64,000 nucleotides of DNA, from contig JBAZXV010000008.1 of the NCBI GenBank assembly GCA_041659685.1, positions 3,332 through 67,331 of the forward strand. Reading direction: 5' to 3'. The position numbers and the translations under genes are program-made. The notes beneath the pieces were generated by a model. The model saw only the letters and a program-made list of their open reading frames with translations, was not told the DNA's origin and did not search any database. Every line of letters starts with the position of its first letter. The first letter of the stretch is position 1. Below, in pieces: positions 1 through 16,999 of the stretch. The DNA comes from Parcubacteria group bacterium. Lineage in GTDB: Bacteria; Patescibacteriota; Minisyncoccia; Moranbacterales; UBA11712.

Positions 1-3000
1 GATTCCAATGCTGCCGGTGCTATTCGCGAACAAAGCTTCGGTCGATCCGGCGCGGACGCGCAGAGGCGAAAGAGTCGAAGATGCCCCGGTTTGAAGATTC
101 AGAAGAGAGCCAGTGCCATTGGCTCCGTTGTCGGTCGTGAGCGAGAAAAGATCGCTGGTTCCCGTTCCTGTCGCCCAGTTGAAAGCGGAGGAATAGGTTC
201 CCATGTTGAGAGACAAGCTGGTGCCCGGCGCTGTGAGAGCCGACCAGGTGCTGGATCCGGCGCCACCGAGATTCGTCCAGCTTCCCCCGCTGTTTTTGAA
301 TTGCAACGTTCCATTGTTATCAAAGATTCCGTATCCATTTGTCCCGGTCAAAGAACCGAAATTCAAATAGTTGTTCGATCCGCGCAAAATCGCGCTGCCG
401 GTGAGATCCAGCGCCGCCAGCGGAGAAGTTGTGCCTATGCCGACATTTCCGCTTGTATAATATATATTTGAACCGTTCTGCCCCCAGAGAGAGGAAGCGC
501 CGCTGCCGCTACTAGACGAGCCGAGAACGGTTTCGTTGCCAGAACTGTCTTTGAAGGCCAAAGCTGATGCTCCATAGGCTCTCGTCGGCGGAGTGAAATT
601 TGAAGTCCAGCGGGCTGTGCCTTTGGAAACTCGAACTTCATCCATGTAGCCACTGAAGTAGGTTGGGCCGTAAACCACCCGACCAATTTCTACAGGGGCT
701 GCAAAAGTAGACCAGGTGTTGGTAGAAGCCGTGCCGCTTGCGACGCCATTAATATACTGCGTTACAACTCCTCCCGATCTTACTATAGCAATATGTGTCC
801 ATGTGGTCGCTGGAATAGTTATAGTTGAATGAAAACCAATTACGGTGCTGCCTGATATATTCAGATAAGTGTTTAATTGATTCCCAGTATCAATATATAC
901 AGAGAAATAATTACTTGTATCTACCCACTGATCTATAATTCTATCCAACACACCTGCGTTATTCCTATTTACCCACATATCAATAGTGAAATCTCCTGAC
1001 CCGTAATCCCAATCATCGCTATCAGGCACGGAAACATAGTCTCCGGTCCCGTCAAAATAAGCGCTCTTTCCTCCAAATTCCGATTTGGTCGTACTTTGGG
1101 TGGCATCGCCATTTGCCGTCACGGTTTTTGCGCTTGAAGAACTATCCGTGAAAGTTGCACCCATTCCGTCAGCGTGGAGAAGAAGCTTGGTATATGAATC
1201 ATTTCCGGCCAGTGGAGACATGGCATACAACTTCCCAAACCCGCTCGTCGCGCTCGGAGAGCTCGTTTGTTCCGCAAGACTCATCACACCGTTAACGGTC
1301 AATTTCTCATTCGGGCTGGTTGTTCCGATTCCAATGCTGCCGGTGCTATTCGCGAACAAAGCCTCGGTCGATCCGGCGCGGACTCGGAGAGGCGAAACGG
1401 TTGAGGACGCTCCGGTTTGGAGATTCAAGAGCGAGCCGGTGCCGTTCGCCGAGTTGTCAGTCGTCAAAGAGAAAAGATCGCTGGTTCCCGTTCCTGTCGC
1501 CCAGTTGAAAGCGGTGGAATAAGTTCCCATATTGAGAGACAAAGCGGTGCTCGGCGCGGTGAGGGCCGACCAAGTGCTCGATCCGGCGCCGCCGAAATTC
1601 GTCCAGGCTCCCCCGCTGTTTTTGAATTGGAGGGTTCCGGCGTTGTCGCGGAAACCGTATCCGTTTGTTCCGTCAGCCGTTCCCCAGTTGAAATAGCCGT
1701 TGGCAGCCAAGCCGATGTTGCCGATGACATCAAGCGCGTGATTGGGAGTGGCATTGCCGATACCCACGCTTCCGCCGGTGTGGTAGATGCTGCCGTCGGG
1801 GTTGGCCGTCCAGACGCCGGTTGCCGTGGAAGAAGTGGCATAGTATTTCCAGTCGGAGTTCGAAGCGAGATCCGGACCGTTGTTATAGATCGGAGCGCGG
1901 TAGATTACGCTGTTATAGGACGCGTTGCCTCCGCCGAAAAGATAGACATATCCGCCGACAACAGCTGTTTGAGAAGCATAAAGATTGGCTGGCAAAGTTG
2001 CGCCGGAACTGACCCAGCTGGTCGGGTTCGAGACTGGAGCGCGGTATATTGTGCTTATTGCACCGCTTGTATACCCCCCCAACAAATATACATAGTCTCC
2101 GATAACGGCAACCTGCGACATTCCGATACTTGCCGGCAGAGTGGCACCTGTGTTGACCCAACTGGTCGGGTTTGAAACCGGAGCGCGGTAGATGACGTTG
2201 GTAACTGGTCCGTTGAGAGTTCCGCCGAAAAGATAGACATAACCTCCAATAACCGCGACATGAGAATATGCCAGATTTCCCGGTATGGTTGACCCGGTGT
2301 TTTCCCAGGAAGTCGGGTTCGAAACTGGAGCGCGATAGATGACGTTGGTATAGGCACTGCCGTTGTGTCCGCCGAAAAGATAGACATAGTCGCCGATGAC
2401 GGCTACTTGGGAAGCTTGGAGATTGCCCGGCAAGGTTGATCCGGTGTTTGACCAAGAAGTGGGGTCGGAAACTGGAGCGCGATAGATTACGTTGGTAATT
2501 GCGCTAGCGCTAACTCCGCCAAAGAGATATACATAATCTCCGATGACCGCCACTTGGGATTGCTGGAGATTCCCCGGCAAAGTTGCTCCTGTATTCGTCC
2601 AGGAAGTCGGATTGGAAACAGGCGCTCGGTAGATAACATTCGTTGCCGCGCTTGCATTGGTTCCACCGAAAAGATAGACATAGTCTCCGATGACAGCAGT
2701 TTGGGAATGTGCCAACACACCCGGCAGAGTCGCGCCTGTATCCACCCATTCGTCTTCTTTCATCCCCGTGCTGCCGGTTCCAGAGCTCGAACCCATCGCC
2801 ATCCAAGCGCCGTTTGAGTTTCGAAATTCCATCGTCCCGTTGTTGTCGCGGATGCCGTAGCCGGAATTTCCGGCGGTCGAGCCGAAATTGAGATAGTTAT
2901 TGAGTCCGCTCAAAATGCCGCTGCCGGCAAGGTCAAGTTTCGCGAGAGGCGCGGTCGTGCCGATCCCCACGTTTCCGGAGTTATAATAGAGTGAAGAGCC

Positions 3001-6000
3001 GTTGGTTCCCCATTGAGATGAAGCGCCGCTGCTTCCTCCAGTCAAAGCGGTAATGTTTCCGTCAGAATCCTTGTAGGCAAGATGCTTTCCAACGTCAAAA
3101 GCTTGGTTTGGCGGAGTGAAATTGGATGTCCAGCGGGCAATGCCTTTGGAGACTCGAATTTCGTCTTTATAATTTGCCACATCGTCCTGATACTCGGAAC
3201 CTCTTGAATAAAATCCTCCGATTCTTATGTAATTATTAACAGTAAAACTAAAGGAAGTGGTCGACGTAGATGTTTTCACTCCGTTTATAAACCCAAAAAC
3301 ACTGCTGCCTGACCGCACGTAGGCAACGTGAACCCATTGATTCAAGGGCACGGTGCCTTCGGTTATGGTGGTCCAGGCATAGCCGCTGCCGGTTTCCGCT
3401 CGAAAATCCAGCTGATTGTTCGTGATGCCGCACGTTATTTCTTGTCTTTGGTCCAGGCCCCAGCCTTTATCACCTATACTAAATACTGTTATCCTATGAC
3501 CTACCGTCGAGGCAGTCAGATAAACCCAGGCATCCACAGTGAAATCTCCCGCACCAAAAGCAAAATCGCTGCTGTCCGCCAAGCTGAGGTAATCCCCTGT
3601 CCCGTCGAAATAGGAGCTCTTTCCGCCAAACTCTGATTGAGTCGAACTCTGAGTTGCGTTGCCGTAGGCCGTCACCGTTTTTGGAGTAGCTTCGCTGTCC
3701 GTGAAAGTAGCGCCTGTGCCGTCGGCGTGGAGCAGTAATTTTGTGTAGGAATCATTGCCGCCAATTCCACCCACTGCGTACAACTTGCCAAATCCGCTCG
3801 TGGCATCAGGCGCATTCATGGATTCCGCAATGGAAATATTTCCGTTCACGGTCAATTTCTCGTTCGGGCTGATTGTCCCCACTCCGACATTCCCGGTGTT
3901 GCCCGCGAACAAAGCTTCGGTCGAGCCGGCCCGGATTCGGAGAGGCGAAAGGGTTGAAGAGGCTCCGGTTTGGAGATTAAGAAGCGAGCCGGTGCCGTTG
4001 GCGGAGTTGTCGGTGGTGAGCGAGAAGAGATCGCTCGATCCCGTTCCGGTTGTCCAGTTGAAAGCGGAAGAATAGGTTCCCATATTGAGAGACAAGTTGG
4101 TGGAAGGCGCGGTGAGAGCCGACCAAGAAGAGGAACCGGCGCCGGCGCCAAGATTCGTCCAGATTCCCCCGCTGTTTTTGAATTGCAATGTTCCGGCGTT
4201 ATCTCGGAAACCATATCCGTTCGTTCCGTCAGCCGTTCCCCAGTTGAAATAGCCGTTGGCGGAGAGGCCGAAGTTGCCGGTGATGTCGAGAGCATGATTG
4301 GGAGCATTGTTTCCGATGCCGACGTTCCCGCCGGTGTAGTAGATACTGCCGTTCGTGTTGGCCGTCCAGATTCCTGCCGCAGAAGAAGTTGCATATTTCC
4401 AAGAGGCGTTCGAGGCTAGGGACGGACCGCCATTGAGAATAGGAGTACGGTAAATAGTGCCGATTCCGACACTGCCATTATTTCCTCCAAAAAGATAAGC
4501 GTAATTTCCGACAGCCGCGACTTGAGAAAGATACAAATTGCTCGGCAGAGTTTTGCCTGTATTGGTCCACGTCGTCGGGCTAGAAACAGAGGCGCTATAC
4601 ATGACATTAGTATAGACACTGCTACCAAGATATCCACCCAGTTGATATATTTTATCGCCGACAATCATAGCTTGTGAATAACTGAGAGTGCCCGGTATAC
4701 TTGATCCCGTGCTGGCCCAAGAAGTCGGGTTGGAAACAGGGGCCCGATAGATAGTGGCGGTTCCATAGCCCCCGAACAAATAGACATAATCCCCAATAAC
4801 TGCAAGCTGAGACCAGGTCAGGTTCGTCGGCAAAGTCGAACCCGTGTTTGCCCAAGAAGTCGGATTGGAAAGCGGAGCGCGGTAAATAACATTGGTATTG
4901 CCGCCACCGTTATATCCCCCAAATAAATATATGTAATCTCCGATAATTGCGACTTGCGAACCATCCAAGTTTCCTGGCAAAGTCGAACCCGTGTTTGCCC
5001 AAGAAGTCGGGTTGGAAAGCGGAGCGCGATAGATAACATTGGTTGTTGTGCCAGCAATATTTCCCCCGAACAGATAGACATAATCTCCGATAATTGCGAC
5101 TTGCGAATATCCCAAATTACCCGGCAAAGTCGAACCCGTGTTTGTCCAGGACGTCGGACTGGAAACAGGAGCCCGATAGATGATATTTGAATTATATCCC
5201 CCGAACAGATAGACATAATCGCCAATGACCGCGGTTTGAGAGCCATATAGAGCGGCTGGCAAAGTCGAACCTGAATCCGCCCATCCGTCTTCTTGCATGG
5301 ACATACTAGTCGTTCCGCCGCCGCCTGATCCTATTGCTACCCAAGCGCCGCTTTGGTTTTTGTATTCCATTGTTCCGTTGTTGTCGCGCAGACCGTATCC
5401 GGAAGTTCCGGCGGTCGAGCCGAAGTTCAAATAGTTGTTGAGCCCGCTCAAGATTCCACTGCCGGCAAGGTCAAGTTTCGCGAGCGGTGCGGTCGTGCCA
5501 ATTCCCACGTTGCCGGAGGTATAGTAGGCGCTGGTGCCGTTCTGGCCCCAGAGGGAAGATGCGCCGCTGCCGGATGCTCCGGCCAAAACTGTTTCCGTGC
5601 CTAAACTGTCTTTATACGCCAGAACACCGCCGCTGCCATAAGCTCTCGTTGGAGGAGTGAAAGCGGAGGTCCAGCGGGCGATGCCTTTGGAAATTCGATA
5701 TTCATCCATATAGCCATTGAAGGAAGTGCCGCCGTTCCAATCAGCTCCGATATATAAACCACTCGCCGACATATCAAATGTGGCGCTTGTCGCCCAGTCG
5801 GAACCTTTTTGAGCTCCGTCACGGAAAACTTTCACGACTCCGTTTGTCCTGACGACCGCCGCGTGATACCAAACACCGGTGGAAAGAGAATCGGAAAAAG
5901 CATGATTAGCAGCTCCATCATATAAATTCCAGCCATTGGAAGCATCATACATTATTCTTAGGGAGGGATTCGGCAGGCTGCCGGCTGAGGTAAGGAAAAA

Positions 6001-9000
6001 ATTATTAGTTGTGCTGTTCAGTCTGAACCAAAAATCCACTGTGAAATCCCCGTCCCAAGTCCAATCGGTACTGTCAGTCGTCGACAAATAGCCGCTGCTG
6101 AAGCTGGCGCTTTCTCCTCCGAACTTGTATTGAGTTGTGCTTTGGGTAGCCGTTCCTGCCGCCGATACAGTTTTTCCGCTTGAGGAGCTGTCCGTGAAAG
6201 TCGCGCCCGTCCCGTCAGCATGAAGAAGGAGCTTGGTGTACGAATCGTTTCCCGAAAGCGGAACCGCATAGAGCTTTCCAAATCCGCTCGTCACGTCGGG
6301 GGCGGCCGCAGATTCCGCGAGACTCATTGCGCCGTTCACGGTGAGTTTTTCATTGGGAGCGGTCGTCCCGATGCCGACGTTGCCGGAATTATTTATGTAT
6401 AAAGCCTCCGTGGACCCTGCCCGGACTCGAAGGGGAGAAAGACTTGAAGACGCTCCGGTCTGGACGTTGAGGAGTGAACCGGTGCCGTCGGCCAGATTGT
6501 CGGTGGTGAGCGAGAAGAGATCGCTCGTTCCCGTTCCGGTCGTCCAGTTGAGATTGGTGGAATAATCTCCCATGCCAAGATAGGAGTTGGTGGAGGGATC
6601 GGTGAGGACCGACCAGGAAAGAGTGCTGGTTCCGGATCCGATGTCCTCCCAATTGCCCGAGCTGTTTTTGAATTGCAAAGTTCCGGCGTTGTCGCGCAGG
6701 CCATATCCGGTTCCGCCATCAGTCGCGCCAAAGTTGAGATAGGCGCTCGTCGAAAGTCCCAGGTTGCCGGCGATGTCAAATGTATGGTTTGGAATTGTCG
6801 TTCCGATGCCCACGGAGCCGGTGGTGAAATATATATTGTTCCCGTTGTTTGTCCACTGGCTGGCGCTCGCGGTCGGAATGTTGGTCCAGGACCCGCCGCT
6901 GTTTTTGATCTGGAGCGTTCCGTTGTTGTCAAAGATTCCGTAGCCTGATGATCCGGAGGTTGAGCCGAAGTTGAGATATCTGCTCGATCCGGAGAGAATC
7001 GCGTTGCCAACGACGCTAAGTGCCGCAGCCGGAGAGGTCGTCCCGATTCCCACGTTGCCGCCGGTGTAGTAGAGCGAAGAGCTATTGGTGCCCCAAGGCG
7101 AAGTCAGTCCGCTAGCGCCGCCGGTTGATCCTAAAATAGTTTCCGTGCCCGAACTGTCTTTGAACGCCAAACTGGTTCCACTTCCATAGGCTCTTGTCGG
7201 CGGAGTAAAGGCAGAGGTCCAACGGGCGGTGCCTTTTGAAATGCGCACTTCGTCCATATAGCCGTTCAGATAGTTTCCCGCATAATCACCCAGTTTTCCA
7301 ATCCCTAAATTAGTTGACACGAAATTCTTTAGTGCGCTTGCGCCTATATTTGTAGTGCTTCCTGAACCAACTTCGCTTGTTCCATTTATAAAAAGATATA
7401 ATGTGCTACCCGATCTGACTCCTGAAATATGGTACCAGGTATTGGCCGATACGGTCGTTGTAGATTTTACATAACGGAGTATATTTCCTGTATCTTTTGT
7501 GGAAAAAACTATATTATTTGAAGAATCCAAATAAAAATGCCACTCATGATCATTGCCTGCCGAGTTAAGGTCTCCGATAAAATATTGATATGATCCTACC
7601 ACGCTTACTCTAGCCCAAAAATCAACCGTAAAGTCTCCCGAGCCGAAATTAAAATCGGCTGTGGCAGGTGTCGTCACTCCGCCGGTTCCGTCGAAATAGG
7701 CGCTTTTTCCGCCAAATTCATATTGGGTTGAGGATTGGGTTGAATTTCCACCGGCTGTCATCGCGTGCGCGGAAGCCGAACTGTCAGTGAAAGTGGTTCC
7801 GGATCCATCGGCGTGAAGAAGAAGGGTTGTATAGGAATCATTGCCTGTCATGGCCATGGCATACAATTTCCCATATCCGCTCGTCGCACTTGGAGAACTC
7901 GCTTGCTCCGCGAGACTCATCACGCCGTTGACGGTCAATTTTTCATTGGGAGTGGTCGTCCCGATGCCGACGTTGTCCGAAACGCTGGAGAGATAGACGT
8001 TTGAACCCGCGTCCGTCCAGCCGCCGCCGACCGCGCCGAAAGTCGCCCAATCCCCGCCCGAGTTTTTGTATTCAATCGTTCCTCCGTTGTCCCGCAAGCC
8101 ATATCCATTTGTTCCGGTCAAAGAACCAAAATTCAAATAATTATTCGAGCCGCGCAAAATGAGGCCTCCGGTCATGTCGAGCGCCGCGAGCGGAGAAGTC
8201 GTGCCTATGCCAATATTTCCGCTTGTATAATATAAATTAGTGCCATTCTGGCCCCAGAGATTGGAAAAGCTACTTCCCCCGCCACTTCCGCCCAGTTCAT
8301 ATTCCGTGCCTCCGGCGGTTTTGTAAAAGAGTCCGGTGGTGTTGTAGGCCTGTGTCGGCGGAGTGAAAGCGGAAGTCCAACGAGCGGTGCCTTTCGAGAC
8401 GCGGAGCTCGTCGATATAGCCGGCAAAATAGTAGTGATTACTGCTGTAATCATTCATTCCAATGGTTAAGGGCTGCGCAGCATCGTTTATTGTCGCAGAA
8501 GAAGTTCCACTTCCTCTTTCCACTCCATCCACATACAGCTTGAAAGATGTTCCGTTTCTCACCCATGCAACATGATGCCAATTACTATTGGAAAGAACGT
8601 TGCTCGATGTTATGCCCACTGTTACTGATGTTCCATCTGTCCAAAAATTTGCAAACGCATGTCCTGTCGCATCCGCACCCACGACCCACCTCGTCAATGA
8701 TGCGGAGCCATAGTTGGATTGAGCGACGAATTCTTGTTCGGTTCCTGTCGCGAAATTGCTTGAGTATGCCCAAAAGTCAACGGTGAAATCCCCCGATCCA
8801 AAAGTCCAATCGTTGCTGTCCGCAACGCTCAAGGAGTCTCCGCTACCGTCAAAATAGGCCGACTTACCGCCAAATTCGGACTGAGTTGCGGATTGAATTG
8901 CATCACCGTTGGCGGTAATTGTCTTGGGAGTCGATTCACTATCTGTAAAAGAATTTCCAGTTCCATCGGCATGAAGAAGAAATTTGGTGTATGTATCGTT

Positions 9001-12000
9001 GCCTCCGGATTGTGTTGCATACAATTTCCCAAACCCGCTGGTCGCGCTTGGAGAACTCGCTTGCTCGGCGAGACTCATCACGCCGTTCACTGTCAGTTTC
9101 TCATTGGGGCTGATTGTTCCAATGCCGACGCTGCCGGAAGAATTCACATACAAAGCCTCAGTCGATCCGCCGCGGACGCGGAGGGGCGAAACAGTCGAGG
9201 ACGCTCCGGTTTGGAGATTCAAGAGCGAACCGGTGCCATTGGCTGAATTGTCGGTCGTGAGCGAAAAGAGGTCGCTGGTTCCGGTTCCCGTCGCCCAGTT
9301 GAAGACGGTCGTGAAAGCGCTCATCGGAAGAGACAGATTGGTGGATGGATCGGTGAGAGTCGACCAAGAAGCTGCGGTGCTGCTGGTACTACTTCCGCTG
9401 CCAATGTTGGTCCAGGTTCCGCCGGAAGCTTTGTATTGGAGGATTCCGGCGTTGTCGCGGATGCCATATCCGGAAGAACCGATGGTTGTGCCGAAGTTGA
9501 GATAGGCGCTCGCCGCAAGACCCAGGTTGCCGCTTGAATCAAAAACTATCTCCGGATCCCCTGTGCCGTTCACATTGAAGCCGAGCGTGTTGGCGGTGGT
9601 GTTGTAGCTCAAAGTATATTCGTCGCTTGTCGAAGATCCGATATGGAGCGTAGCCGGTCCAAGAAAGAGATCGCTCCAGCGATGGGTGTCGTCGCCGAGA
9701 TTATAGGTATCGTCAACTGAGGGAAAGATGTCTCCCGCGACGGTAAGTTTGGCGGAAGGACTTGTTGTCCCGATTCCGACGTTGCCGTTCATTGTTACGT
9801 CACCGTTAGACCTGATTGTCATTCTTTCGCTTCCATTGAGCGTCGTGTCATTCGCCGCGGTAAAAAATCCTATCTCCGTCGCCGCATTTTCCATATTAAA
9901 ACTTGCGCCTGCTCCGCCAATCCAAACCTTATTGTTAGTGCCGTCAGAACGCCCCTGAATCAATGCGACTGGCTCCTCTGCGTCGGTTTTATGAGCCATC
10001 GCGATAAAAGCATCTTTTTGCGCATTGCCGCCACTGGCATAATCAGAAAGTTTGAGAGTCACCACATTGTCACTTCCGACAATATCCAGCTTCGCCCCCG
10101 GATTCGTCGTCCCTATCCCGACGTTGCCTTGATTTGTAACGACAAATTTTTCCGACCACAGTCCACTGCCATGATTTGTATAAACCGAAAATCTTCCCGT
10201 ATAAGTGCCTGTCGCGCTTCCCGATGACTGCAATATGATATTAGAACTATCATCCGATAATGTTGGTCTGGCATTGAGGATAATTTGAGCTGTAGTTGGA
10301 TTATATACAGTCAATCCTCCGCCATTTACAAAAGCTGACCCTGCCACTTCTAGCTTCGCTCCCGGGCTCGTCGTCCCGATGCCGACGTTTCCTTGCTTTA
10401 TATACAAACTATTAGCCACCGCTCCTGAACCTGTCATCACCAAAACATCATTGGTTCCGCCTGCCCGAATCACAGTGTCTCCCGAGCTTCTGATTGTCAT
10501 GGCCGCGCTGGTATTGTCTCCGATATACACATTGTTCCCGCTGGAAAAATAAGCCAGCTGTCTTGCTGTCCCGCCGCTATCTTTTGCGGTCAAAGCCTGT
10601 TCATTATCAAGCAATATACTTCCACCCGAAACTGTCAGTTTCGCCCCCGGACTCGTCGTTCCGATGCCGACGTTGCCCGCTTTCAGTACCAGCGTATTTG
10701 CCACGGCCGAAGGTTGATAAATGGTCATGACTTGGGCAGCGTTTACTTTGAAAAGCATATTTCCGTTTGATTTGTCACCGGCTTCCAAAATAAGCGACCC
10801 CACATTAGCATGTTCATTCCCATACAGATAGATCGTCGCGCCTCTCGTGTTTCCGGCCACTCCTCCGCCAGTTATTGTCAAAACATCGCTGTCCGAAGCG
10901 TCAACTGTGGCAGTACTGATGGTCGAATTTGCTCCGAAAGACAATTTGGAAGTCGGATTCGTCGTCCCGATCCCGACGTTGCCCGCTGATGTTATTCTCA
11001 TCCACTCATTTGCTCCTGTGTTTATGCTTCCATTCGTTGCAAAAGTTATTGGATTAGCACTGTTTGTCAAGATGGAAAGTCCCGCTTCGGCTGAAATAAA
11101 ACCGCTATTAGCTCCTGCATAATAAGTATTCGTTGAAGCATACGTTCCGAGTTGGTTGTAATATGAAGAATTGTAAACCGCGATAGAATTTCTAGTATCA
11201 CTACTTGCTACAAATTTTGCCATTGTAGCACTTGTTGGAGCTCCATAAACATGCAATAGCATTCCCGGCGCGGTCGTTCCAATGCCAACGTTGCCGCCGT
11301 CGGCTACCGTCATGTATGATTCCCACACGCCGTTGTTATCTACATGCCCAAACTGAACATTTCGATCTGTCGCAGAACTCGAATTTCCCCTGATGCGGAT
11401 TGCACCGCTGTTTGTATCGCCCATTATGAATCTCTCCGTGAGTTCAGAAGAGAAAACCAAATTTCCTCGCAGACTTTCGTTTCCCACGACAACAAGTTTC
11501 GAACCGGGACTAGTTGTCCCAATCCCGACATTGCCGTTTGTGTCCCAGATTCCCGACCCGGGGAAATATGTGTTCGCCGAGAAAGTCTGCGCGCCGGTCC
11601 AAGTATTGGCGTGTCCGAGATTCAAAGACGCGACCACATCTCCGATCGTCGGCGAGATGGTGAGCGTCCCGTCGGAATTTGTGACCGAAGAAACTCCGAC
11701 GCTCGCTACCGATGTCCAACTGGCGAGTCCATTCGCGTCCGAGGTCAAAACTTTGTTGAGACCCGGAGTTCCGCCGGTGATTTTCACTTGCCCCGCAACT
11801 TCGAGTTTCGAGCCAGGTGTAGTGGTGCCGATTCCAATGTTGTCACTCTTTAAATATAACGTGTTGGCTGCGTTCCCCTGCTCCACAGTCATTACGACTT
11901 TTCCTCCTTGATTATCATAGAGTTTAAAACTTCCATCATTAGCTGTAATGCCTTGTCCAATTGACCAACCGTCTGACCCATCAACTTTGCCAAAAAACAA

Positions 12001-14763
12001 ATTGGCGTTTTGGTCTGCAGCAGCATTAGTAATTGCTATGGTTGCACCAGAAACTTGAAGATTTCTTGTCGGACTTGTCGTTCCGATGCCGACGTTTCCG
12101 GAGCTTATTATTCGCATCGCTTCCGTTGATGAATAACTTGAGTTAGTTCGTCCAGTTCTAAAAGACAAAAAATTATCGGAAGCAGTGGCGGAACCCGCAA
12201 TATCAATATATCCGCCTACTCCACCATCCTGTAAAAATGACATCTCTTGCGGACGCCCCGTGGTATGCAATACAAAACCAGATTGACCGTTTGTTGCTGT
12301 TGCAGTTAAATCTAGTATTTTATCAGCAGATGAATTTATAGACGCATGGGGGCTCGTCGTCCCGATGCCGACGTTGCCAGTTCTCAAAACAGTAAACACG
12401 TCCACCCCATCACCCAAAGCTTGGTTATTTACTGTGAATCTTCCTTCTGTCGCTCCAGAACCAGCGTTTGTGGAAATACCAGCCGTCACCCATCCAGGCT
12501 TAGTTGCGTGTGAATGGGCAAACAAGTTTATTGCTCCGCCATAACCATTGGAACCAACACCAGCTTGCATCACCAATTGACCCGTGCCCGTGTTGGTATC
12601 AGCAGATTCTCCCATTATTATGTACCTTCTGCTCCCGTCTACTTTTGATAATCTGATATTCCCGTTTACGGACAGCGGGCTGTTCGGCGCTGTCGTTCCG
12701 ATGCCGACGTTGCCGTCATTTTTTATATTCAGGATCGGATTCCCCCATGTTCCTATTTGTATTTGGTTTGTATTGTCCAAATTGCCTACATACATATCCG
12801 TTGCAGTTTGCTGATTGAAAAATATCAGTCCGCCAGAACCGCTTGCATTTGAGTTAAATTCAAGAGTGGCTCCGCTACCCGTCCCTAATTTGGCATTTCC
12901 TGCCACATGCAACAGCGAGCTTGGGCTCGTCGTCCCGATGCCAACGTTGCCCGCTATGTATCCGTTTCCGCTAAGCCACAGGTCTGACCATTTAGCGGTT
13001 GAAACTCCTAAACTTATCATGCCAGTACTAGAAACATAGGGTCTGAAGGCGCCATTAGTTAAAACAACATTGCCCCCATCTGCTCCTCCGTTTGCCTTCA
13101 AGTTGAAGTTTCCGCTTGTCCCCGCTAAAAATGTAAAATCCGGACCAGTTCCATTGGTTGTAATGCTCAATTGCCCTACGCTGTTCACAGCGAATTGGGT
13201 GTAATTTGAAGCATCGTATCCCAATCTTAATTGTTCTGTGGTTTTAAATACATGTAATGCCGCTCCCGGCGCGGTCGTCCCGATGCCGACATTGCCACTT
13301 GCTCCGGCATAGAAAGTTCCGGCGCCATATGCCGCGACTCCTCCGAGATATACATTTCCGGAAGTATCAATTCTGAAGCGAGTGGCTGGCGTTGTGCCGT
13401 CTTCAATAATGAAATTGTCATCTCCTCCGTTCTGTCCCACTCCCATATACCAATTTCGGCTGTCAGTTTGAATGGAAGTATAAGTATTGGCGTCGGCTGT
13501 TCCGCCAACCACCAGTTTATATTGTGGATTCGTTGTCCCGATCCCGACGTTGCCGTTATTTAAAATAACCATTTTTGACCCGTTACTTCCAGTCGAACCA
13601 ACCCTAAAGTCATAACCATAAGAATTTAAAACTAGTGCCTGGTCGCCTGCTCCTCCAATATTGGATATGCCCAAAGTAGCACCAGTATATCCGCTCCTTG
13701 AAAGCTGCATTGAATCATTCCATGCCGAGCCATAAACATCCAACTTCGCCCCCGGCGTCGTTGTTCCGATCCCGAGGTTGCCGTTTTGTAAGATTGTCAT
13801 TGCTTCTGTGCTTCCCATCTGAAAACGCAATCTACCTGCTCCACTTTCCATCATAATACGCCCCGACAAATCATTCATTTGTCCGAAACTCATATAATCA
13901 GCACCAACCAAATCTCCGTTAGAAGCATCGAAATACATCAAACTGTCACCCGAACCCGTATTCGCAATGAGAGTAGTAGTTCCTCCTGCAGATGAATCGC
14001 TTATGGTTAACTTTTGCCCCGGAGTCGCGGTTCCAATCCCGACGTTGCCGCCCGTGAAAGTCGCGGCGTATCCCGTTCCTGACTGAGCGACTTTGAGCGC
14101 CGTACCGGTTCCCCCGCCGGAGCCATACACGACGCTCAAAGCACTGTTTGTCCCGCTCGCGGGATTGTAATTTATATTCGCCGCGTCTTGTGCGGCCCCA
14201 GTGTTGTCGATATCGATGAATCCATCCCCGACCACGTTCAGCGAATTGATGGCTTGGGGAACCGCGCCTAGTCTTTTGCGGGGGGACATTTCCGCGTCTG
14301 AGTCGACCGTCACGCCGAGATAATATGTGTCTTGGTCAAAGTTTAGATTCAATGCATTGCCATTTCCGCTTCCGAGCATCACCGAAAAAATTCCCTTGCT
14401 GACTGCTACTGCGTTCCCGTTCACTGCCGTATACGTCCCGGTCCAGAGGAGATTTCCGTTTTCGGCCGCGTCATACAGCTTGAAAACCATGTCATAGTTC
14501 CCATCCGCCACCGCCACGTTCGAAGTGTTCGTGAGTTTTCCCTGATAATTCATCTGCCGGTTGACCGCCGCTTGAGAGAAGTAGGCAAAGCAAAAAAACC
14601 CGACTGAAACAATCAGCCCCGTTCGAACCACCCGTCCGATTCGTATTATTTTTCCCACTTGCCCCTTCAACCCCATTTTTCCCGTTTCACCCTTTTCATC
14701 CATTTTTTCAGTTTTGTTTCTTGTTTTGTTTCTCACTTGAGATTCAGTTCCCTCGATTCCCAT
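1..14763 (-). CDS. giant secreted/cell-surface protein, >4,900 aa within the window (C-terminus beyond window start): signal/TM segment + GNVGIGTT beta-helix repeats + 5 LamG-like domains + 2 Kelch-like propellers
   Basis: The minus-strand frame whose codon first bases fall on coordinates divisible by 3 is open with no stop at every point translated: 1-1380, 1681-1800, 2341-2460, 2976, 4347, 9135, 12714 and 14521-14763. Translation gives GSIGIGTTSPNEKLTVNG...KLLLHADG...GYMDEVRVSKGTARWTSNFTPP and GNVGIGTTSP motifs. In-frame stops at 14766-14768 and 14773-14775 are followed by in-frame ATGs at 14763, 14703 and 14676. A basic-then-hydrophobic N-terminus (KIIRIGRVVRTGLIVSVGFFCFAY) follows. No complete minus ORF in this frame is listed in the track, consistent with an ORF that leaves the window without a stop. 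Confidence 0.8.
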   Translation of the reverse strand, partial: MGIEGTESQVRNKTRNKTEKMDEKGETGKMGLKGQVGKIIRIGRVVRTGLIVSVGFFCFAYFSQAAVNRQMNYQGKLTNTSNVAVADGNYDMVFKLYDAAENGNLLWTGTYTAVNGNAVAVSKGIFSVMLGSGNGNALNLNFDQDTYYLGVTVDSDAEMSPRKRLGAVPQAINSLNVVGDGFIDIDNTGAAQDAANINYNPASGTNSALSVVYGSGGGTGTALKVAQSGTGYAATFTGGNVGIGTATPGQKLTISDSSAGGTTTLIANTGSGDSLMYFDASNGDLVGADYMSFGQMNDLSGRIMMESGAGRLRFQMGSTEAMTILQNGNLGIGTTTPGAKLDVYGSAWNDSMQLSRSGYTGATLGISNIGGAGDQALVLNSYGYDFRVGSTGSNGSKMVILNNGNVGIGTTNPQYKLVVGGTADANTYTSIQTDSRNWYMGVGQNGGDDNFIIEDGTTPATRFRIDTSGNVYLGGVAAYGAGTFYAGASGNVGIGTTAPGAALHVFKTTEQLRLGYDASNYTQFAVNSVGQLSITTNGTGPDFTFLAGTSGNFNLKANGGADGGNVVLTNGAFRPYVSSTGMISLGVSTAKWSDLWLSGNGYIAGNVGIGTTSPSSLLHVAGNAKLGTGSGATLEFNSNASGSGGLIFFNQQTATDMYVGNLDNTNQIQIGTWGNPILNIKNDGNVGIGTTAPNSPLSVNGNIRLSKVDGSRRYIIMGESADTNTGTGQLVMQAGVGSNGYGGAINLFAHSHATKPGWVTAGISTNAGSGATEGRFTVNNQALGDGVDVFTVLRTGNVGIGTTSPHASINSSADKILDLTATATNGQSGFVLHTTGRPQEMSFLQDGGVGGYIDIAGSATASDNFLSFRTGRTNSSYSSTEAMRIISSGNVGIGTTSPTRNLQVSGATIAITNAAADQNANLFFGKVDGSDGWSIGQGITANDGSFKLYDNQGGKVVMTVEQGNAANTLYLKSDNIGIGTTTPGSKLEVAGQVKITGGTPGLNKVLTSDANGLASWTSVASVGVSSVTNSDGTLTISPTIGDVVASLNLGHANTWTGAQTFSANTYFPGSGIWDTNGNVGIGTTSPGSKLVVVGNESLRGNLVFSSELTERFIMGDTNSGAIRIRGNSSSATDRNVQFGHVDNNGVWESYMTVADGGNVGIGTTAPGMLLHVYGAPTSATMAKFVASSDTRNSIAVYNSSYYNQLGTYASTNTYYAGANSGFISAEAGLSILTNSANPITFATNGSINTGANEWMRITSAGNVGIGTTNPTSKLSFGANSTISTATVDASDSDVLTITGGGVAGNTRGATIYLYGNEHANVGSLILEAGDKSNGNMLFKVNAAQVMTIYQPSAVANTLVLKAGNVGIGTTSPGAKLTVSGGSILLDNEQALTAKDSGGTARQLAYFSSGNNVYIGDNTSAAMTIRSSGDTVIRAGGTNDVLVMTGSGAVANSLYIKQGNVGIGTTSPGAKLEVAGSAFVNGGGLTVYNPTTAQIILNARPTLSDDSSNIILQSSGSATGTYTGRFSVYTNHGSGLWSEKFVVTNQGNVGIGTTNPGAKLDIVGSDNVVTLKLSDYASGGNAQKDAFIAMAHKTDAEEPVALIQGRSDGTNNKVWIGGAGASFNMENAATEIGFFTAANDTTLNGSERMTIRSNGDVTMNGNVGIGTTSPSAKLTVAGDIFPSVDDTYNLGDDTHRWSDLFLGPATLHIGSSTSDEYTLSYNTTANTLGFNVNGTGDPEIVFDSSGNLGLAASAYLNFGTTIGSSGYGIRDNAGILQYKASGGTWTNIGSGSSTSSTAASWSTLTDPSTNLSLPMSAFTTVFNWATGTGTSDLFSLTTDNSANGTGSLLNLQTGASSTVSPLRVRGGSTEALYVNSSGSVGIGTISPNEKLTVNGVMSLAEQASSPSATSGFGKLYATQSGGNDTYTKFLLHADGTGNSFTDSESTPKTITANGDAIQSATQSEFGGKSAYFDGSGDSLSVADSNDWTFGSGDFTVDFWAYSSNFATGTEQEFVAQSNYGSASLTRWVVGADATGHAFANFWTDGTSVTVGITSSNVLSNSNWHHVAWVRNGTSFKLYVDGVERGSGTSSATINDAAQPLTIGMNDYSSNHYYFAGYIDELRVSKGTARWTSAFTPPTQAYNTTGLFYKTAGGTEYELGGSGGGSSFSNLWGQNGTNLYYTSGNIGIGTTSPLAALDMTGGLILRGSNNYLNFGSLTGTNGYGLRDNGGTIEYKNSGGDWATFGAVGGGWTDAGSNVYLSSVSDNVGIGTTTPNEKLTVNGVMSLAEQASSPSATSGYGKLYAMAMTGNDSYTTLLLHADGSGTTFTDSSASAHAMTAGGNSTQSSTQYEFGGKSAYFDGTGGVTTPATADFNFGSGDFTVDFWARVSVVGSYQYFIGDLNSAGNDHEWHFYLDSSNNIVFSTKDTGNILRYVKSTTTVSANTWYHISGVRSGSTLYLFINGTSEVGSGSTTNIGASALKNFVSTNLGIGKLGDYAGNYLNGYMDEVRISKGTARWTSAFTPPTRAYGSGTSLAFKDSSGTETILGSTGGASGLTSPWGTNSSSLYYTGGNVGIGTTSPAAALSVVGNAILSGSSRYLNFGSTSGSSGYGIFDNNGTLQIKNSGGSWTNIPTASASQWTNNGNNIYFTTGSVGIGTTIPNHTFDIAGNLGLSTSAYLNFGATDGGTGYGLRDNAGTLQFKNSSGNWEDIGSGTSTLSWSVLTDPSTNSYLGMGDYSTNLNWTTGTGTSDLFSLTTDNLADGTGSLLNVQTGASSSLSPLRVRAGSTEALYINNSGNVGIGTTAPNEKLTVNGAMSLAESAAAPDVTSGFGKLYAVPLSGNDSYTKLLLHADGTGATFTDSSSSGKTVSAAGTATQSTTQYKFGGESASFSSGYLSTTDSTDWTWDGDFTVDFWFRLNSTTNNFFLTSAGSLPNPSLRIMYDASNGWNLYDGAANHAFSDSLSTGVWYHAAVVRTNGVVKVFRDGAQKGSDWATSATFDMSASGLYIGADWNGGTSFNGYMDEYRISKGIARWTSAFTPPTRAYGSGGVLAYKDSLGTETVLAGASGSGASSLWGQNGTSAYYTSGNVGIGTTAPLAKLDLAGSGILSGLNNYLNFGSTAGTSGYGLRDNNGTMEYKNQSGAWVAIGSGGGGTTSMSMQEDGWADSGSTLPAALYGSQTAVIGDYVYLFGGYNSNIIYRAPVSSPTSWTNTGSTLPGNLGYSQVAIIGDYVYLFGGNIAGTTTNVIYRAPLSNPTSWANTGSTLPGNLDGSQVAIIGDYIYLFGGYNGGGNTNVIYRAPLSNPTSWANTGSTLPTNLTWSQLAVIGDYVYLFGGYGTATIYRAPVSNPTSWASTGSSIPGTLSYSQAMIVGDKIYQLGGYLGSSVYTNVMYSASVSSPTTWTNTGKTLPSNLYLSQVAAVGNYAYLFGGNNGSVGIGTIYRTPILNGGPSLASNASWKYATSSAAGIWTANTNGSIYYTGGNVGIGNNAPNHALDITGNFGLSANGYFNWGTADGTNGYGFRDNAGTLQFKNSGGIWTNLGAGAGSSSWSALTAPSTNLSLNMGTYSSAFNWTTGTGSSDLFSLTTDNSANGTGSLLNLQTGASSTLSPLRIRAGSTEALFAGNTGNVGVGTISPNEKLTVNGNISIAESMNAPDATSGFGKLYAVGGIGGNDSYTKLLLHADGTGATFTDSEATPKTVTAYGNATQSSTQSEFGGKSSYFDGTGDYLSLADSSDFAFGAGDFTVDAWVYLTASTVGHRITVFSIGDKGWGLDQRQEITCGITNNQLDFRAETGSGYAWTTITEGTVPLNQWVHVAYVRSGSSVFGFINGVKTSTSTTSFSFTVNNYIRIGGFYSRGSEYQDDVANYKDEIRVSKGIARWTSNFTPPNQAFDVGKHLAYKDSDGNITALTGGSSGASSQWGTNGSSLYYNSGNVGIGTTAPLAKLDLAGSGILSGLNNYLNFGSTAGNSGYGIRDNNGTMEFRNSNGAWMAMGSSSGTGSTGMKEDEWVDTGATLPGVLAHSQTAVIGDYVYLFGGTNASAATNVIYRAPVSNPTSWTNTGATLPGNLQQSQVAVIGDYVYLFGGVSASAITNVIYRAPVSDPTSWSNTGSTLPGNLQASQVAVIGDYVYLFGGHNGSAYTNVIYRAPVSNPTSWENTGSTIPGNLAYSHVAVIGGYVYLFGGTLNGPVTNVIYRAPVSNPTSWVNTGATLPASIGMSQVAVIGDYVYLLGGYTSGAISTIYRAPVSNPTSWVSSGATLPANLYASQTAVVGGYVYLFGGGNASYNSVIYRAPIYNNGPDLASNSDWKYYATSSTATGVWTANPDGSIYHTGGSVGIGNATPNHALDVIGNIGLAANGYFNWGTADGTNGYGFRDNAGTLQFKNSGGAWTNFGGAGSSTWSALTAPSTALSLNMGTYSTAFNWATGTGTSDLFSLTTDNSANGTGSLLNLQTGASSTVSPLRVRAGSTEALFANSTGSIGIGTTSPNEKLTVNGVMSLAEQTSSPSATSGFGKLYAMSPLAGNDSYTKLLLHADGMGATFTDSSSSAKTVTANGDATQSTTKSEFGGKSAYFDGTGDYVSVPDSDDWDYGSGDFTIDMWVNRNNAGVLDRIIDQWVDTSNYFSVYIDTGNQLNTYLNISGSTVIGFHSTITIPATTWTHIAIVRSGGVVTQYINGVASGTASTNTWSTFAAPVEIGRVVYGPTYFSGYMDEVRVSKGTARWTSNFTPPTRAYGASALAFKDSSGNETVLGSSSSGSGASSLWGQNGSNIYYTSGNVGIGTTSPLAALDLTGSAILRGSNNYLNFGSLTGTNGYGIFDNNGTLQFKNSGGSWTNLGGAGSSTWSALTAPGTSLSLNMGTYSSAFNWATGTGTSDLFSLTTDNGANGTGSLLNLQTGASSTLSPLRVRAGSTEALFANSTGSIGI
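560..1190 (-). other. LamG-like domain 5
   Basis: Directly translated: KLLLHADGMGATFTDSSSSAKTVTANGDATQSTTKSEFGGKSAYFDGTGDYVSVPDSDDWDYGSGDFTIDMWV...GYMDEVRVSKGTARWTSNFTPPTRAY. Confidence 0.7.
2000..2760 (-). repeat. Kelch-like beta-propeller, 5-6 blades
   Basis: Translated blade: TSWSNTGSTLPGNLQASQVAVIGDYVYLFGGHNGSAYTNVIYRAPVSNP. The unit recurs every ~144 nt at about 2021, 2161, 2301, 2445 and 2585. Confidence 0.6.
3085..3745 (-). other. LamG-like domain 4
   Basis: Translation gives KLLLHADGTGATFTDSEATPKTVTAYGNATQ...KDEIRVSKGIARWTSNFTPP. Anchor motifs lie at 3720-3745 and 3111-3135. Confidence 0.6.
4440..5290 (-). repeat. Kelch-like beta-propeller, about 6 blades of about 48 aa
   Basis: A 144-nt periodic DNA repeat is seen at about 4550, 4725, 4855, 5000 and 5145, with the same repeat unit as the 2000-2760 propeller. 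Confidence 0.55.
5630..6235 (-). other. LamG-like domain 3
   Basis: The plus strand reads cgtcagcatgaagaaggagctt (HADG) at about 6205-6235 and ggaggagtgaaagcggaggtccagcg (RWTS.FTPP) at about 5651-5680. Confidence 0.55.
7180..7830 (-). other. LamG-like domain 2
   Basis: The KLLLHADG-encoding segment is at 7801-7830 and the RWTSxFTPP-encoding segment at 7201-7230. Confidence 0.55.
8330..8990 (-). other. LamG/Concanavalin-A-like jelly-roll domain 1 of the giant protein
   Basis: A KFLLHADG-type start sits near 8950-8990 and a DE(V/I)R(V/I)SKG.ARWTSNFTPP end near 8351-8380 (plus-strand ggcggagtgaaagcggaagtccaacg). Confidence 0.6.
9560..14100 (-). repeat. about 16 tandem beta-helix-type repeats (77-117 aa each), each carrying a GNVGIGTT(S/A)P...KL.V.G motif; N-terminal half of the giant protein
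   Basis: The plus-strand motif ccgat(g/c/t)ccgac(g/a)ttgcc (reverse complement GNVGIG) recurs at about 9768, 10120, 10375, 10662, 10965, 11278, 11516, 11828, 12082, 12362, 12698, 12930, 13280, 13535, 13765 and 14030. All copies are in the same frame. Confidence 0.7.
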
Positions 14764-14786
14764 TTTTTATTTCTAAATATTTTTGA

Positions 14787-14814
14787 ATTTTACACTGTCA
14801 TTTTTCGCTTTGAA
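14787..14814 (-). promoter_or_regulatory. candidate sigma70-like promoter for the giant gene (TTCAAA-N16-TAAAAT on the minus strand)
   Basis: The minus strand reads ttcaaagcgaaaaatgacagtgtaaaat in the 52-nt spacer between the HTH-gene stop (14816) and the first in-frame ATG (14763). Confidence 0.3.
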
Positions 14815-14815
14815 C

Positions 14816-15238: not shown

Positions 15239-15258
15239 TTTTTTGATATTTAAGGTAA

Positions 15259-15300
15259 CTCGATATCATATCCGATACTGTATCGACACCAGAATTATAG
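15259..15300 (-). promoter_or_regulatory. candidate promoter/operator of the HTH gene: extended -10 (TGcTATAAT) followed by two adjacent palindromes (CGATACAGTATCG, GATATGATATC)
   Basis: The minus strand reads gtgcTATAATtctggtgtCGATACAGTATCGGATATGATATCgag immediately upstream of the ATG at 15238. Confidence 0.35.
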
Positions 15301-15303
15301 CAC

Positions 15304-15332
15304 AAAAAAAGGCCTGCCAACAGCCTTTTTTA
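15304..15332. terminator. rho-independent terminator hairpin, A-tract/stem/T-tract and symmetric
   Basis: The sequence aaaaaaaGGCcTGccaaCAGCCtttttt lies downstream of the RAYT gene on the minus strand. Confidence 0.55.
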
Positions 15333-15348
15333 ACCAAGTTATCCACAC

Positions 15349-15376
15349 CCCACTTAGACACTCAGTGTCTAAGTGG
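15349..15376. repeat. REP-like palindrome type 1 (ccaCTTAGAcactcagtgTCTAAGtgg); overlaps the RAYT stop codon
   Basis: A perfect 27-nt palindrome. Its reverse complement recurs at 15817-15841. Confidence 0.7.
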
Positions 15377-16995: not shown

Positions 16996-16999
16996 TATA

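Follow-up and report, generated by a model that had tools for sequence, protein, structure and literature searches.

A giant MAT-like fiber protein with serial lectin-type domains, probably displayed on the cell surface, in a Parcubacteria genome

The window analyzed in this study is a 64,000-nucleotide stretch (positions 3,332 to 67,331 of contig JBAZXV010000008.1, assembly GCA_041659685.1) from the metagenome-assembled genome (MAG) of a Parcubacteria group bacterium, which belongs to the candidate phyla radiation (CPR). At one end of the window, the minus strand encodes the first 4,921 residues of a giant modular protein. Judged from homology of its N-terminal domain and its shaft, this protein is probably a Parcubacteria cell-surface fiber of the MAT (mosaic adhesive trimer)/phage-tail-fiber type, which would be trimeric, anchored N-terminally and display lectin-type domains for attachment to hosts or glycans. 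An initial annotation, made from the sequence alone, had proposed an adhesin or host-attachment fiber, and this still appears to be the best reading, based on the MAT-type N-domain, the homologous shaft and the serial lectin-type domains. The protein is best described as a very large, lectin-studded form of MAT-like fiber with a small set of uncharacterized CPR relatives.

Reading frame and database identity

In the minus-strand frame whose codons begin at multiples of 3, 4,922 codons from position 14766 down to position 1 were free of stops, and the nearest in-frame stop upstream was found at 14767–14769. The two alternative minus frames carried 210 and 211 stops over positions 1–16000, or about one per 25 codons, and the open run of 4,922 codons is thus not due to chance. 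In-frame stops were looked for and none was found, in agreement with the uninterrupted frame from 14763 to 1 that had been reported by the initial annotation. The translation was 100% identical to residues 1–4,921 of MFA5926334.1 (P0259 in our numbering), a 6,031-residue protein of a Parcubacteria MAG that is named "LamG-like jellyroll fold domain-containing protein, partial" in GenBank. An exhaustive search retrieved P0259, whose residues 3722–4921 were matched by the query, the final 1,200 residues encoded in the window. Other proteins of the window were also exact GenBank entries of this MAG (GlmS, MFA5926346; UppP, MFA5926342; LeuRS, MFA5926351; AtpA, MFA5926362) on a contig of 74,591 bp, and the claim of a giant, exported, modular CPR protein was borne out. 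The start codon was ATG 14763 both in the GenBank protein and in a separate gene call on a Logan contig; residues are numbered from this ATG throughout.

The gene was also predicted to go on beyond the window, which it does. It is at least 18.1 kb long and continues for 3,330 nt past window position 1 up to the contig end, and no stop was found across the 6,031 codons of the window and the deposited extension together. Extension of the contig, proposed for finding the C-terminus and an anchoring signal, yielded 1,110 residues from the deposited protein, which is labeled partial, but the C-terminus still lies past the contig end. No contig extending the gene was found by look-ups of its neighbors, which gave only Logan contigs of 2,976 and 13,785 bp and no record for LeuRS or AtpA, or in GTDB and JGI scans, which returned relatives and none identical. 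Finally, the gene had been described as hidden from the track of open reading frames (ORFs). It is indeed absent from that list, but only because the list excludes any ORF that extends past the sequence end; the gene itself is annotated by PGAP. The major parts of the protein are as follows.

1..14763, minus strand: giant gene, codons 1–4921; the protein has at least 6,031 residues (open frame and GenBank identity)
14632..14763, minus strand: charged N-terminal stretch, residues 1–44, with alternative in-frame starts
14566..14631, minus strand: signal-peptide-like segment, residues 45–66 (VVR-TGLIVSVGFFCFAYF-SQA/A, the slash marking the predicted cleavage site)
14050..14565, minus strand: MAT-like N-domain and linker, residues 67–238, with a beta-sandwich core at about residues 71–165
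9532..14049, minus strand: proximal shaft, residues 239–1744, 16 units of 76–115 residues, each opened by GNVGIGTTsPxxKLxVxG
1..9531, minus strand: distal modular region, residues 1745–4921, short shaft connectors alternating with lectin-type domains
Outside the window, residues 4922–6031: LamG6, LamG7, further Y/X connectors, an F5_F8_type_C (discoidin) domain and one GIG motif (Pfam and module map)

Signal segment and N-terminal domain

Characterized MAT fibers possess a signal peptide and an invariant beta-rich N-domain of ~130 residues, which has no homolog in the PDB and is thought to be located at the cell surface. Their shaft is an intertwined trimeric beta-helix made of 94–135-residue segments that are capped by a conserved loop motif, and their tip is variable, adhesive and found with or without an S74 chaperone (PMC10769870). 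One MAT fiber binds prey surface glycans (PMC10769870).

The export segment claimed for the giant protein, basic and then hydrophobic, was recovered at residues 36–68 (KIIRIGRVVR-TGLIVSVGFFCFAYF-SQA/AV, the segment ending in FFCFAYFSQA/AV). The part covering residues 45–66 is the sole strongly hydrophobic 19-mer in the 6,031 residues and aligns with the signal peptides of homologs, such as MQMGLIALIGIFCFAFFSQAAVNRQMNYQGKL of P0003. Sec-dependent export and cleavage after SQA are predicted. Alternative starts are present at GTG 14736, ATG 14703, ATG 14676, TTG 14670, GTG 14658 and GTG 14631. In homologs, the N-domain begins 2–40 residues from the N-terminus, and for this reason the true start may be internal.

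The N-domain matched the NCBIfam model NF053851 (Bdello_MAT_N) with an E-value of 4e-8 and a score of 33.2 bits as an isolated domain, which is below the curated cutoff of 60 bits, and with 23.6 bits in the whole protein. The same model was matched by 32 of the 36 aligned homologs, with a best E-value of 2e-11. By these scores, the window protein is a distant relative of the Bdellovibrio MAT subfamily, not a member of it. The AlphaFold2 (AF2) model of the N-domain is a beta-sandwich whose core has a predicted local distance difference test score (pLDDT) of 94–98. No close solved fold was found for this model in the PDB, which agrees with the published statement that the MAT N-domain lacks a PDB homolog (PMC10769870).

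Shaft units and connectors

The proximal shaft contains 16 G[NS][VIL]GIGT motifs at residues 239–1660, whose spacing ranges from 76 to 115 residues with a mean of 94.7. Altogether, 30 GIG motifs are found in the window and 37 across the 6,031 residues, with the consensus GNVGIGTTsPgaKLdVxG. This motif resembles the published MAT consensus V-G-G/N-pi-x-x-P-x-x-x-L, from which it differs by one additional residue between G and P, and its spacing in the shaft matches the 94–135 residues of the published MAT beta-helix segments. When residues 1–1900 were compared with all PDB sequences, the sole match was the MAT fiber Bd2133 (8OND, E-value of 2e-7), and the alignment passes through the "SGNLGLGTAAPTSALHV" and "GNVGIGATAPTAKLEVAG" motifs of Bd2133 itself. 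Moreover, a profile of 15 shaft units retrieved only five matches from the whole PDB, which were 8OND (6e-14), 8OJN, 8OML, 8OL4 and 8ON4. Of these structures, 8OND bears the name bd2133 in its deposition, and the data statement of the MAT paper includes 8OL4 (PMC10769870). Matches to tail-fiber models, for which a search had been suggested by the initial annotation, were also obtained, with PHROG tail-fiber families phrog_9942 (E-value of 4e-53) and phrog_18345 (E-value of 2e-37). These sequence and profile matches indicate homology between the shaft and the Bdellovibrio MAT fibers, namely their capping loops and their intertwined, trimeric beta-helix segments. The count of about 16 GNVGIGTTSP-type beta-helix repeats made earlier agrees with the 16 units, but each unit is a whole shaft segment of ~95 residues, in which the motif marks the boundary and is not a coil.

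In the distal region, the connectors consist of a GIG motif, a Y hairpin of ~55 residues (GYGxRDNxGTLQFKNSGG) and an X module of ~77 residues (…DLFSLTTDN…SPLRVR…). Copies of X in the window were located by module map and hidden Markov models (HMMs).

9136..9366, minus strand: X module copy 1, residues 1800–1876
6385..6615, 3895..4125, 1342..1572 and 16..246, minus strand: further X module copies

The profile of the Y-X connector retrieved 8OND, 8OL4, 8OJN, 8ON4 and 8OML, the same MAT structures as those retrieved by the shaft units, which indicates that the connectors are specialized shaft segments. A novel globular fold, also considered for X and Y, was ruled out by this match.

As a separate observation, X modules in proteins of TM6, Saccharibacteria and other Patescibacteria share 57–70% identity with those of the window, whereas the rest of those proteins is 25–30% identical or cannot be aligned. 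A cassette junction, a partner-binding site and horizontal transfer are all possible explanations for this unusual conservation of X.

Lectin-type domains

Domains in residues 1745–4921 are arranged in the order of LamG1, LamG2, LamG3, Kelch1, LamG4, Kelch2 and LamG5.

8320..9051, minus strand: LamG 1, residues 1905–2148 (Pfam Laminin_G_3 and module HMM)
7159..7893, minus strand: LamG 2, residues 2291–2535 (Pfam Laminin_G_3 and module HMM)
5611..6300, minus strand: LamG 3, residues 2822–3051 (Pfam Laminin_G_3 and module HMM)
4429..5286, minus strand: Kelch propeller 1, six blades, residues 3160–3445 (Pfam PF24681 and Kelch_6, blade register, PDB Kelch matches)
3070..3810, minus strand: LamG 4, residues 3652–3898 (Pfam Laminin_G_3, module HMM, AF2 model)
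1879..2751, minus strand: Kelch propeller 2, six blades, residues 4005–4295 (Pfam Kelch, blade register)
550..1257, minus strand: LamG 5, residues 4503–4738 (Pfam Laminin_G_3 and module HMM)

Pfam matches far above their thresholds upheld the five LamG domains and two six-bladed Kelch propellers of the initial annotation: Laminin_G_3 (PF13385) was found five times in the window (E-value of 1e-80, 269 bits against a cutoff of 27.6), and Kelch PF24681 matched two sets of six blades of ~49 residues (E-value of 7e-36, 124 bits against a cutoff of 50). In the PDB, the sequence of the distal half matched the eukaryotic Kelch propellers of LZTR1, KLHL20 and KLHDC3. The two propellers are 67.5% identical to each other. 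Structure prediction of single modules, which had been suggested as a check, gave a model of LamG 4 that resembles the ConA-like lectin domains of tetanus/botulinum toxin Hc, trans-sialidase and the GH43 arabinanase AbnA (Foldseek E-value of 6e-10), domains that bind carbohydrates or gangliosides. The identities among the seven LamG copies ranged from 42 to 57%. Their centers are hypervariable and rich in insertions and deletions, while their first and last strands are nearly invariant (NDSYTKLLLHADG…FTDS and GY.DE.R.SKG.ARWTS.FTPPT.AY). This pattern would fit a fixed plug into the shaft combined with diversified ligand surfaces.

Protein totals and C-terminal end

Over the 6,031 residues, the protein possesses 37 GIG motifs, seven LamG, two Kelch and one discoidin domain, six X modules and 12 Y hairpins. 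Its molecular mass is 622 kDa, its isoelectric point (pI) is 4.8 and it contains 3 Cys; Gly (14.6%), Ser (11.9%), Thr (11.5%) and Ala (8.9%) are abundant. This extracellular-type composition, with few Cys, a low pI and richness in G, S, T and N, supports the assignment as a surface fiber. No catalytic Pfam or NCBIfam domain was found in the 6,031 residues.

The 6,031 residues, which stop short of the true C-terminus, contain neither an LPx[TSA]G motif nor a further hydrophobic segment. Similarly, LPXTG was absent from the last 200 residues of nine relatives and from the entire sequences of P0260 and P0261. A C-terminal sortase anchor appears unlikely, since LPXTG was not found in these sequences, the anchor end of the family is N-terminal and relatives end in S74 and/or 'NWW[IV][IV]'.

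Composition, repeat age and genomic context

The GC content of the giant gene is 0.51, compared with about 0.44–0.46 in its surroundings and neighboring genes. At the second codon position, GC is 0.536 in the giant gene versus 0.357 in the neighbors, whereas at the third codon position it is 0.52 versus 0.50, and synonymous codon choice is similar. Thus, the raised GC is attributable to amino-acid composition, and the idea of foreign DNA or a GC island was ruled out. The region had been called conspicuously GC-rich; its GC is raised, but the contrast is modest and resides in codon position 2.

The paralogous modules share 67–75% nucleotide identity, the best pair being 85% identical over 346 nt, and the longest exact internal repeat is ~45 nt. 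Given this divergence, the internal repeat array is old and is neither collapsed nor lately amplified, and both recent amplification and assembly collapse were ruled out.

Over the surrounding 50 kb, the neighbors encode UppP, Nramp, GlmS, CofD, leucyl-tRNA synthetase (LeuRS), ATP synthase, methionyl-tRNA synthetase and peptidases. Apart from the giant gene itself, no phage structural, packaging or lysis gene was found in the 64-kb window, whose genes next to the giant one are of housekeeping and envelope type, and a prophage origin was rejected on this gene context. No further MAT-like gene was found in the window, and Rfam and tRNA scans revealed no RNA gene in it. A promoter-like site lies just 5' of the ATG.

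14787..14814, minus strand: promoter-like site TTCAAA-16-TAAAAT, a consensus match only; such sites are no commoner than in shuffled sequence

Relatives in CPR and other phyla

The database search returned only matches of up to ~1.75 times the query size; the giant relatives were obtained with a 3,022-residue query and an exhaustive search of representatives. With the N-terminal 620 residues, 1,395 database relatives were found at an E-value of 1e-5 or below. The named ones are mostly from CPR, including Parcubacteria, Moranbacteria, WWE3 and Pacebacteria. Many of these relatives possess a C-terminal Peptidase_S74 domain, and one is labeled "tail fiber domain-containing protein" by its source. 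The giant relatives include the following proteins.

P0147, 4,127 residues: three Kelch regions and S74
P0136, 4,241 residues: five LamG, Gly_rich_2 and S74
P0175, Moraniibacteriota, 3,253 residues: N-domain, X, LamG and discoidin
P0200, Moraniibacteriota, 3,249 residues: N-domain, C1q, discoidin, Kelch and SPRY
P0260 and P0261, 3,902 and 5,822 residues: Kelch regions and S74

Similar to the window protein, these six giant CPR fibers, of which P0136, P0147, P0260 and P0261 are from metagenomes, contain a MAT-like N-domain or a transmembrane anchor, GIG shaft units and the X module, and have LamG, Kelch, F5/8C, SPRY or C1q domains inserted in series. Different from the window protein with its 37 shaft motifs, they are 3,249–5,822 residues long with 4–18 shaft motifs, and their best local identities to it ranged from 36 to 58%; all are uncharacterized. 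S74, as PF13884 or an SDxRxK motif, was found in P0002, P0016, P0136, P0147, P0260 and P0261. The remaining giants consist for the most part of simple LamG or Kelch arrays and lack a shaft. Among the proteins fetched, none had as many shaft motifs, and in none was a GIG shaft found together with all three of LamG, Kelch and discoidin. The statement that this domain combination is not a named family therefore needs qualification: the N-domain and the shaft belong to the MAT/S74 tail-fiber-like superfamily, the protein has a generic name in GenBank, and the in-line lectin design is shared by other CPR giants.

In addition, a C-terminal domain of ~70 residues that ends in '…(V/I)NWW(I/V)(I/V)' is common to eight CPR/TM6 fiber proteins (P0002, P0016, P0147, P0175, P0200, P0230, L012:8291-14737 and L013:525-10412). 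It is located ~300–500 residues downstream of the S74 motif in P0002, P0016 and P0147. No Pfam family matched it above threshold, and the L013 copy gave a weak K1-lyase_C match (E-value of 2e-4). An end of this NWW type may be what the contig break has removed from the window protein.

Giant fiber proteins from TM6, Pacebacteria and others were also observed to open with a Phage_int_SAM_1-like domain (Pfam E-values of 2e-8 to 5e-10). These are L009:8459-13372, L011:8144-12304, L013:525-10412, P0147 and P0230. In such proteins the domain is followed by a charged linker, one transmembrane helix and the MAT-like N-domain ('LSYQGRLTD…'). From this order, they would be type-II membrane proteins with an integrase-core-binding-like cytoplasmic domain and an extracellular fiber. 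The window protein has no Phage_int_SAM_1-like domain.

Comparison with characterized fibers and adhesins

The closest characterized counterparts are the MAT fibers of Bdellovibrio bacteriovorus (Bd2133/8OND, Bd3182, Bd1334 and Bd2439; Caulton et al. 2024, PMC10769870). Like them, the window protein has a signal peptide directly before a homologous beta-rich N-domain, shaft segments of ~90–135 residues bounded by the GN(V/L)G(I/L)GT..P..(K)L motif, and distal adhesive lectin-type domains, and its relatives likewise divide into S74 and non-S74 types. However, the Bdellovibrio proteins have ~1,000 residues, a handful of shaft motifs and one terminal tip, whereas the window protein has at least 6,031 residues (at least six times as many), 37 motifs and ten lectin-type domains placed serially along the shaft. 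It therefore departs from the MAT architecture of one tip and ~1,000 residues. The organisms also differ, Bdellovibrio being a Gram-negative predator and the organism of the window a monoderm-type CPR bacterium. The supplementary text files of the MAT paper describe MAT-like proteins of 481–1,001 residues from predators and a few other bacteria, and these text files do not mention CPR, LamG or Kelch (PMC10769870).

The MAT paper also shows the structural equivalence of MAT shafts and phage S74-fiber shafts (PMC10769870). Phage S74 tail fibers and tailspikes, such as the T5 L-shaped fiber pb1 and the K1F endosialidase (PF13884), resemble the window protein in that its repeat shaft falls in PHROG tail-fiber families and in that many shorter homologs, as well as the giants P0136, P0147, P0260 and P0261, carry PF13884 or SDxRxK. 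They differ in that the window gene is cellular, with a signal peptide, an anchoring N-domain and no virion context, and in that its known part has no S74. On the homology of N-domain and shaft, the giant protein is assigned to the wider MAT/S74 tail-fiber-like superfamily.

Giant envelope proteins of 1,392–4,163 residues have been reported from the CPR predator Vampirococcus lugosii, for which roles in host recognition and attachment and in a fibrous cell surface were proposed (PMC8080830). By description they are similar to the window protein as giant CPR envelope proteins with interaction domains, and they differ in their WD40, TPR and PKD-type domains (PMC8080830). The words 'fibre', 'fiber' and 'lectin' are absent from the main text of that paper. 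The preprint on giant genes of Omnitrophota (bioRxiv 10.1101/2023.11.21.568195) does not contain this type of fiber.

Trimeric autotransporter adhesins, such as YadA and BadA, are very long trimeric fibers in which stalks alternate with globular heads, and they are anchored at one end and mediate multivalent adhesion. As long, multivalent, one-end-anchored trimeric fibers, they provide a functional analogy only. They are unrelated in sequence and have coiled-coil stalks and a C-terminal beta-barrel in the outer membrane, whereas the window protein has a beta-helical shaft and its proximal end at the N-terminus, and an outer membrane is not expected.

Alternative explanations

Several results weigh against a trimeric, lectin-bearing surface fiber. 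The MAT fibers characterized so far have the smaller, single-tip form described above, and globular domains in line within a trimeric shaft lack structural precedent in the MAT family. The N-domain falls short of the curated NF053851 cutoff. No Pfam S74 match and no SD...K motif was found in the 6,031 residues, which end with the contig before the C-terminus is reached. Domains of the LamG, Kelch and discoidin types can also bind proteins or accompany enzymes. Finally, the AF2 monomer model of connector-LamG-connector (residues 3470–4005) is only moderately confident, with a mean pLDDT of 65.5, and a monomer model cannot reveal trimer packing.

The same model bears on the strongest competitor, in which the protein would be a monomeric coat or adhesin built like beads on a string, comparable to giant Ig-repeat adhesins or S-layer-associated proteins, with the GNVGIGT units as independent small domains. 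Its GIG/Y beta-hairpins are locally confident (pLDDT of 71–82), and in-line globular domains are typical of monomeric adhesins. However, an extended monomer model of low confidence is also what is expected for a strand-swapped trimer. Moreover, solved trimeric MAT fibers were all that the shaft-unit profile retrieved from the PDB, and relatives commonly end in the S74 trimerization chaperone. A monomeric adhesin is thus considered unlikely, although it is the explanation to be taken most seriously after the trimeric fiber. Less probable still is a scaffold of a predatory effector or of an enzyme degrading polysaccharides or cell walls, whose lectin domains would bind carbohydrates on behalf of a toxin or catalytic domain situated in the C-terminal part that is missing. 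The C-terminal part does lie beyond the contig end, the LamG/ConA-like domains resemble lectin and carbohydrate-binding-module domains of sialidases and of GH43 arabinanase, the relative P0230 carries Hint and FG-GAP modules, and a link to cell-wall degradation has been drawn for giant Omnitrophota genes (bioRxiv 10.1101/2023.11.21.568195). The known 6,031 residues are nonetheless free of catalytic domains; Pfam likewise revealed nothing catalytic in the complete relatives checked, whose domains are of the lectin type, S74 and Gly_rich_2, and several relatives terminate in the small NWW domain.

Two further explanations concern the gene itself. That it encodes a tail fiber of a phage or prophage virion and not a cellular surface protein is very improbable. 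The matches to PHROG tail-fiber, baseplate-wedge and virion-structural families are strong, the LamG units match proteins of cyanophages and a Rhizobium phage, and Y1-transposase-like genes are nearby. These phage matches are, however, confined to shared domains, and the X/Y connectors have none; the layout of a cellular fiber is seen in the signal peptide and the MAT-type N-domain after it, and neither the housekeeping neighbors, among which other phage genes are lacking, nor the third-position GC and synonymous codon usage set the gene apart from the chromosome. Least probable of all is an assembly artifact or decaying pseudogene, with repeats that were collapsed or joined into a chimera. 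The high modularity of the gene and its origin from a short-read MAG invite this suspicion, as do its fragmentation in the independent Logan assembly of SRR18595301, where the 2,976-bp contig stops 300 nt into the gene, and the termination of the contig inside the gene. Yet the 6,031 codons contain no stop, the modules have diverged in DNA as described above with no long exact repeat, and they follow a regular order, with intact boundaries of the domains. The trimeric MAT-like surface fiber is therefore retained as the probable identity of the protein.

Proposed mechanism

As a trimeric MAT-like fiber, the chain would be exported through Sec by means of its N-terminal signal segment, and the beta-sandwich N-domain of ~100 residues, homologous to that of MAT fibers, would stay beside the cell and hold the fiber on the envelope. 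Three chains would then wind around one another to form a beta-helical shaft, in which each of the 16 segments of ~95 residues is delimited by a GNVGIGTTsPxxKL capping loop; for this shaft the homology is observed and the trimer is predicted. The shaft of Bd3182 rises 60 Å per 135 residues, or 0.44 Å per residue (PMC10769870); by analogy, the proximal shaft of 1,506 residues is estimated to be ~65 nm long. Further out, connectors would alternate with globular lectin-type domains that project sideways from a continuous shaft.

The N- and C-termini of LamG, Kelch and discoidin folds are close together in known structures, and for this reason such domains could hang off a continuous shaft. Seven LamG, two Kelch and one discoidin domain per chain would give ~30 lectin-type domains per trimer. 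With a rigid framework and variable central loops, the LamG domains would probably read several surface glycans or proteins at once, and such multivalent binding would tether the small cell to a host or substrate. By analogy with the relatives, the distal end is probably formed by an S74 intramolecular chaperone and/or an NWW C-terminal domain.

A broader proposal is more tentative, and we regard it as possible without favoring it. CPR episymbionts may recognize and hold their hosts with MAT fibers that, like those of Bdellovibrio, derive from tail fibers and that have been enlarged to multi-megadalton trimers. The diverged arrays of LamG, Kelch and discoidin domains would then serve as a multi-specific glycan reader, host range would be set by gain, loss and divergence of modules and not by tip swapping, and the X connector would be a cassette junction for shuffling across phyla (CPR and TM6).

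Neighboring genes and other observations

Directly 5' of the giant gene is an ORF of 140 residues (14816–15238, minus strand), which encodes an excisionase/MerR-type-looking helix-turn-helix followed by one transmembrane helix; before it lie a -10-like box and a terminator-like hairpin. Neither Pfam nor PHROG gave a significant match for this ORF. Conserved linkage between the two genes was considered and rejected, as no homolog of the ORF was found in the 87 other loci fetched save in the Logan contig of the same organism.

A cluster of envelope-protein genes (16030–20299, minus strand) adjoins the giant gene. Its products are one WxLIP_PGBD (DUF916-type) protein, another secreted protein, whose transmembrane helix is C-terminal, and three further secreted proteins of small size, including two that look alike by eye. 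The cluster recalls the Csc/WxL cell-surface-complex clusters of Gram-positive bacteria. Speculatively, it might supply a docking partner for the N-domain of the fiber.

Two weakly matching Y1_Tnp (IS200-like) genes are at 15369–16019 and 22688–23347, both on the minus strand. Around the first of them, a near-perfect palindrome of 25 nt (CACTTAGACACTGAGTGTCTAAGTG) occurs at 15351–15375 and 15817–15841, for which 0 occurrences are expected by chance, and a related hairpin is found at 16031–16055. This Y1_Tnp gene and its palindromes look like those of the REP/RAYT type (repetitive extragenic palindromes and their associated transposases).

The LeuRS (28792–31695, minus strand, 967 residues) matches nucleotidyltransferases at residues ~373–472, after its editing domain (Aminoglyc_resit PF10706, E-value of 5e-8; NTP_transf_5), and this part may be an inserted domain. 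Finally, two other likely surface proteins are encoded in the window.

27017..27973, minus strand: 318 residues, right-handed beta-helix (Beta_helix/NosD/pectate-lyase-like)
60353..62323, minus strand: 656 residues, DUF11/DUF7619

Significance

Giant adhesin-like proteins are not surprising in CPR as such, and an annotation of the gene, with a generic name, already exists. If the protein were simply one more large adhesin, the gain would lie in improving on the present annotation, "LamG-like jellyroll fold domain-containing protein." How the ultrasmall cells of CPR/Patescibacteria, almost none of which have been cultured, find and hold their hosts is largely unexplained. The giant protein ties the giant surface proteins of CPR to the MAT family, which has been characterized experimentally by structures and one glycan-binding activity. 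Moreover, a 622-kDa protein is resolved into separately expressible units, which are the N-domain, the shaft units, seven LamG, two Kelch and one discoidin domain, and such units could be used on glycan arrays or as probes for host fishing. As it recurs in several CPR giants, a trimeric shaft with serial lectin insertions is suggested as a general design rule.

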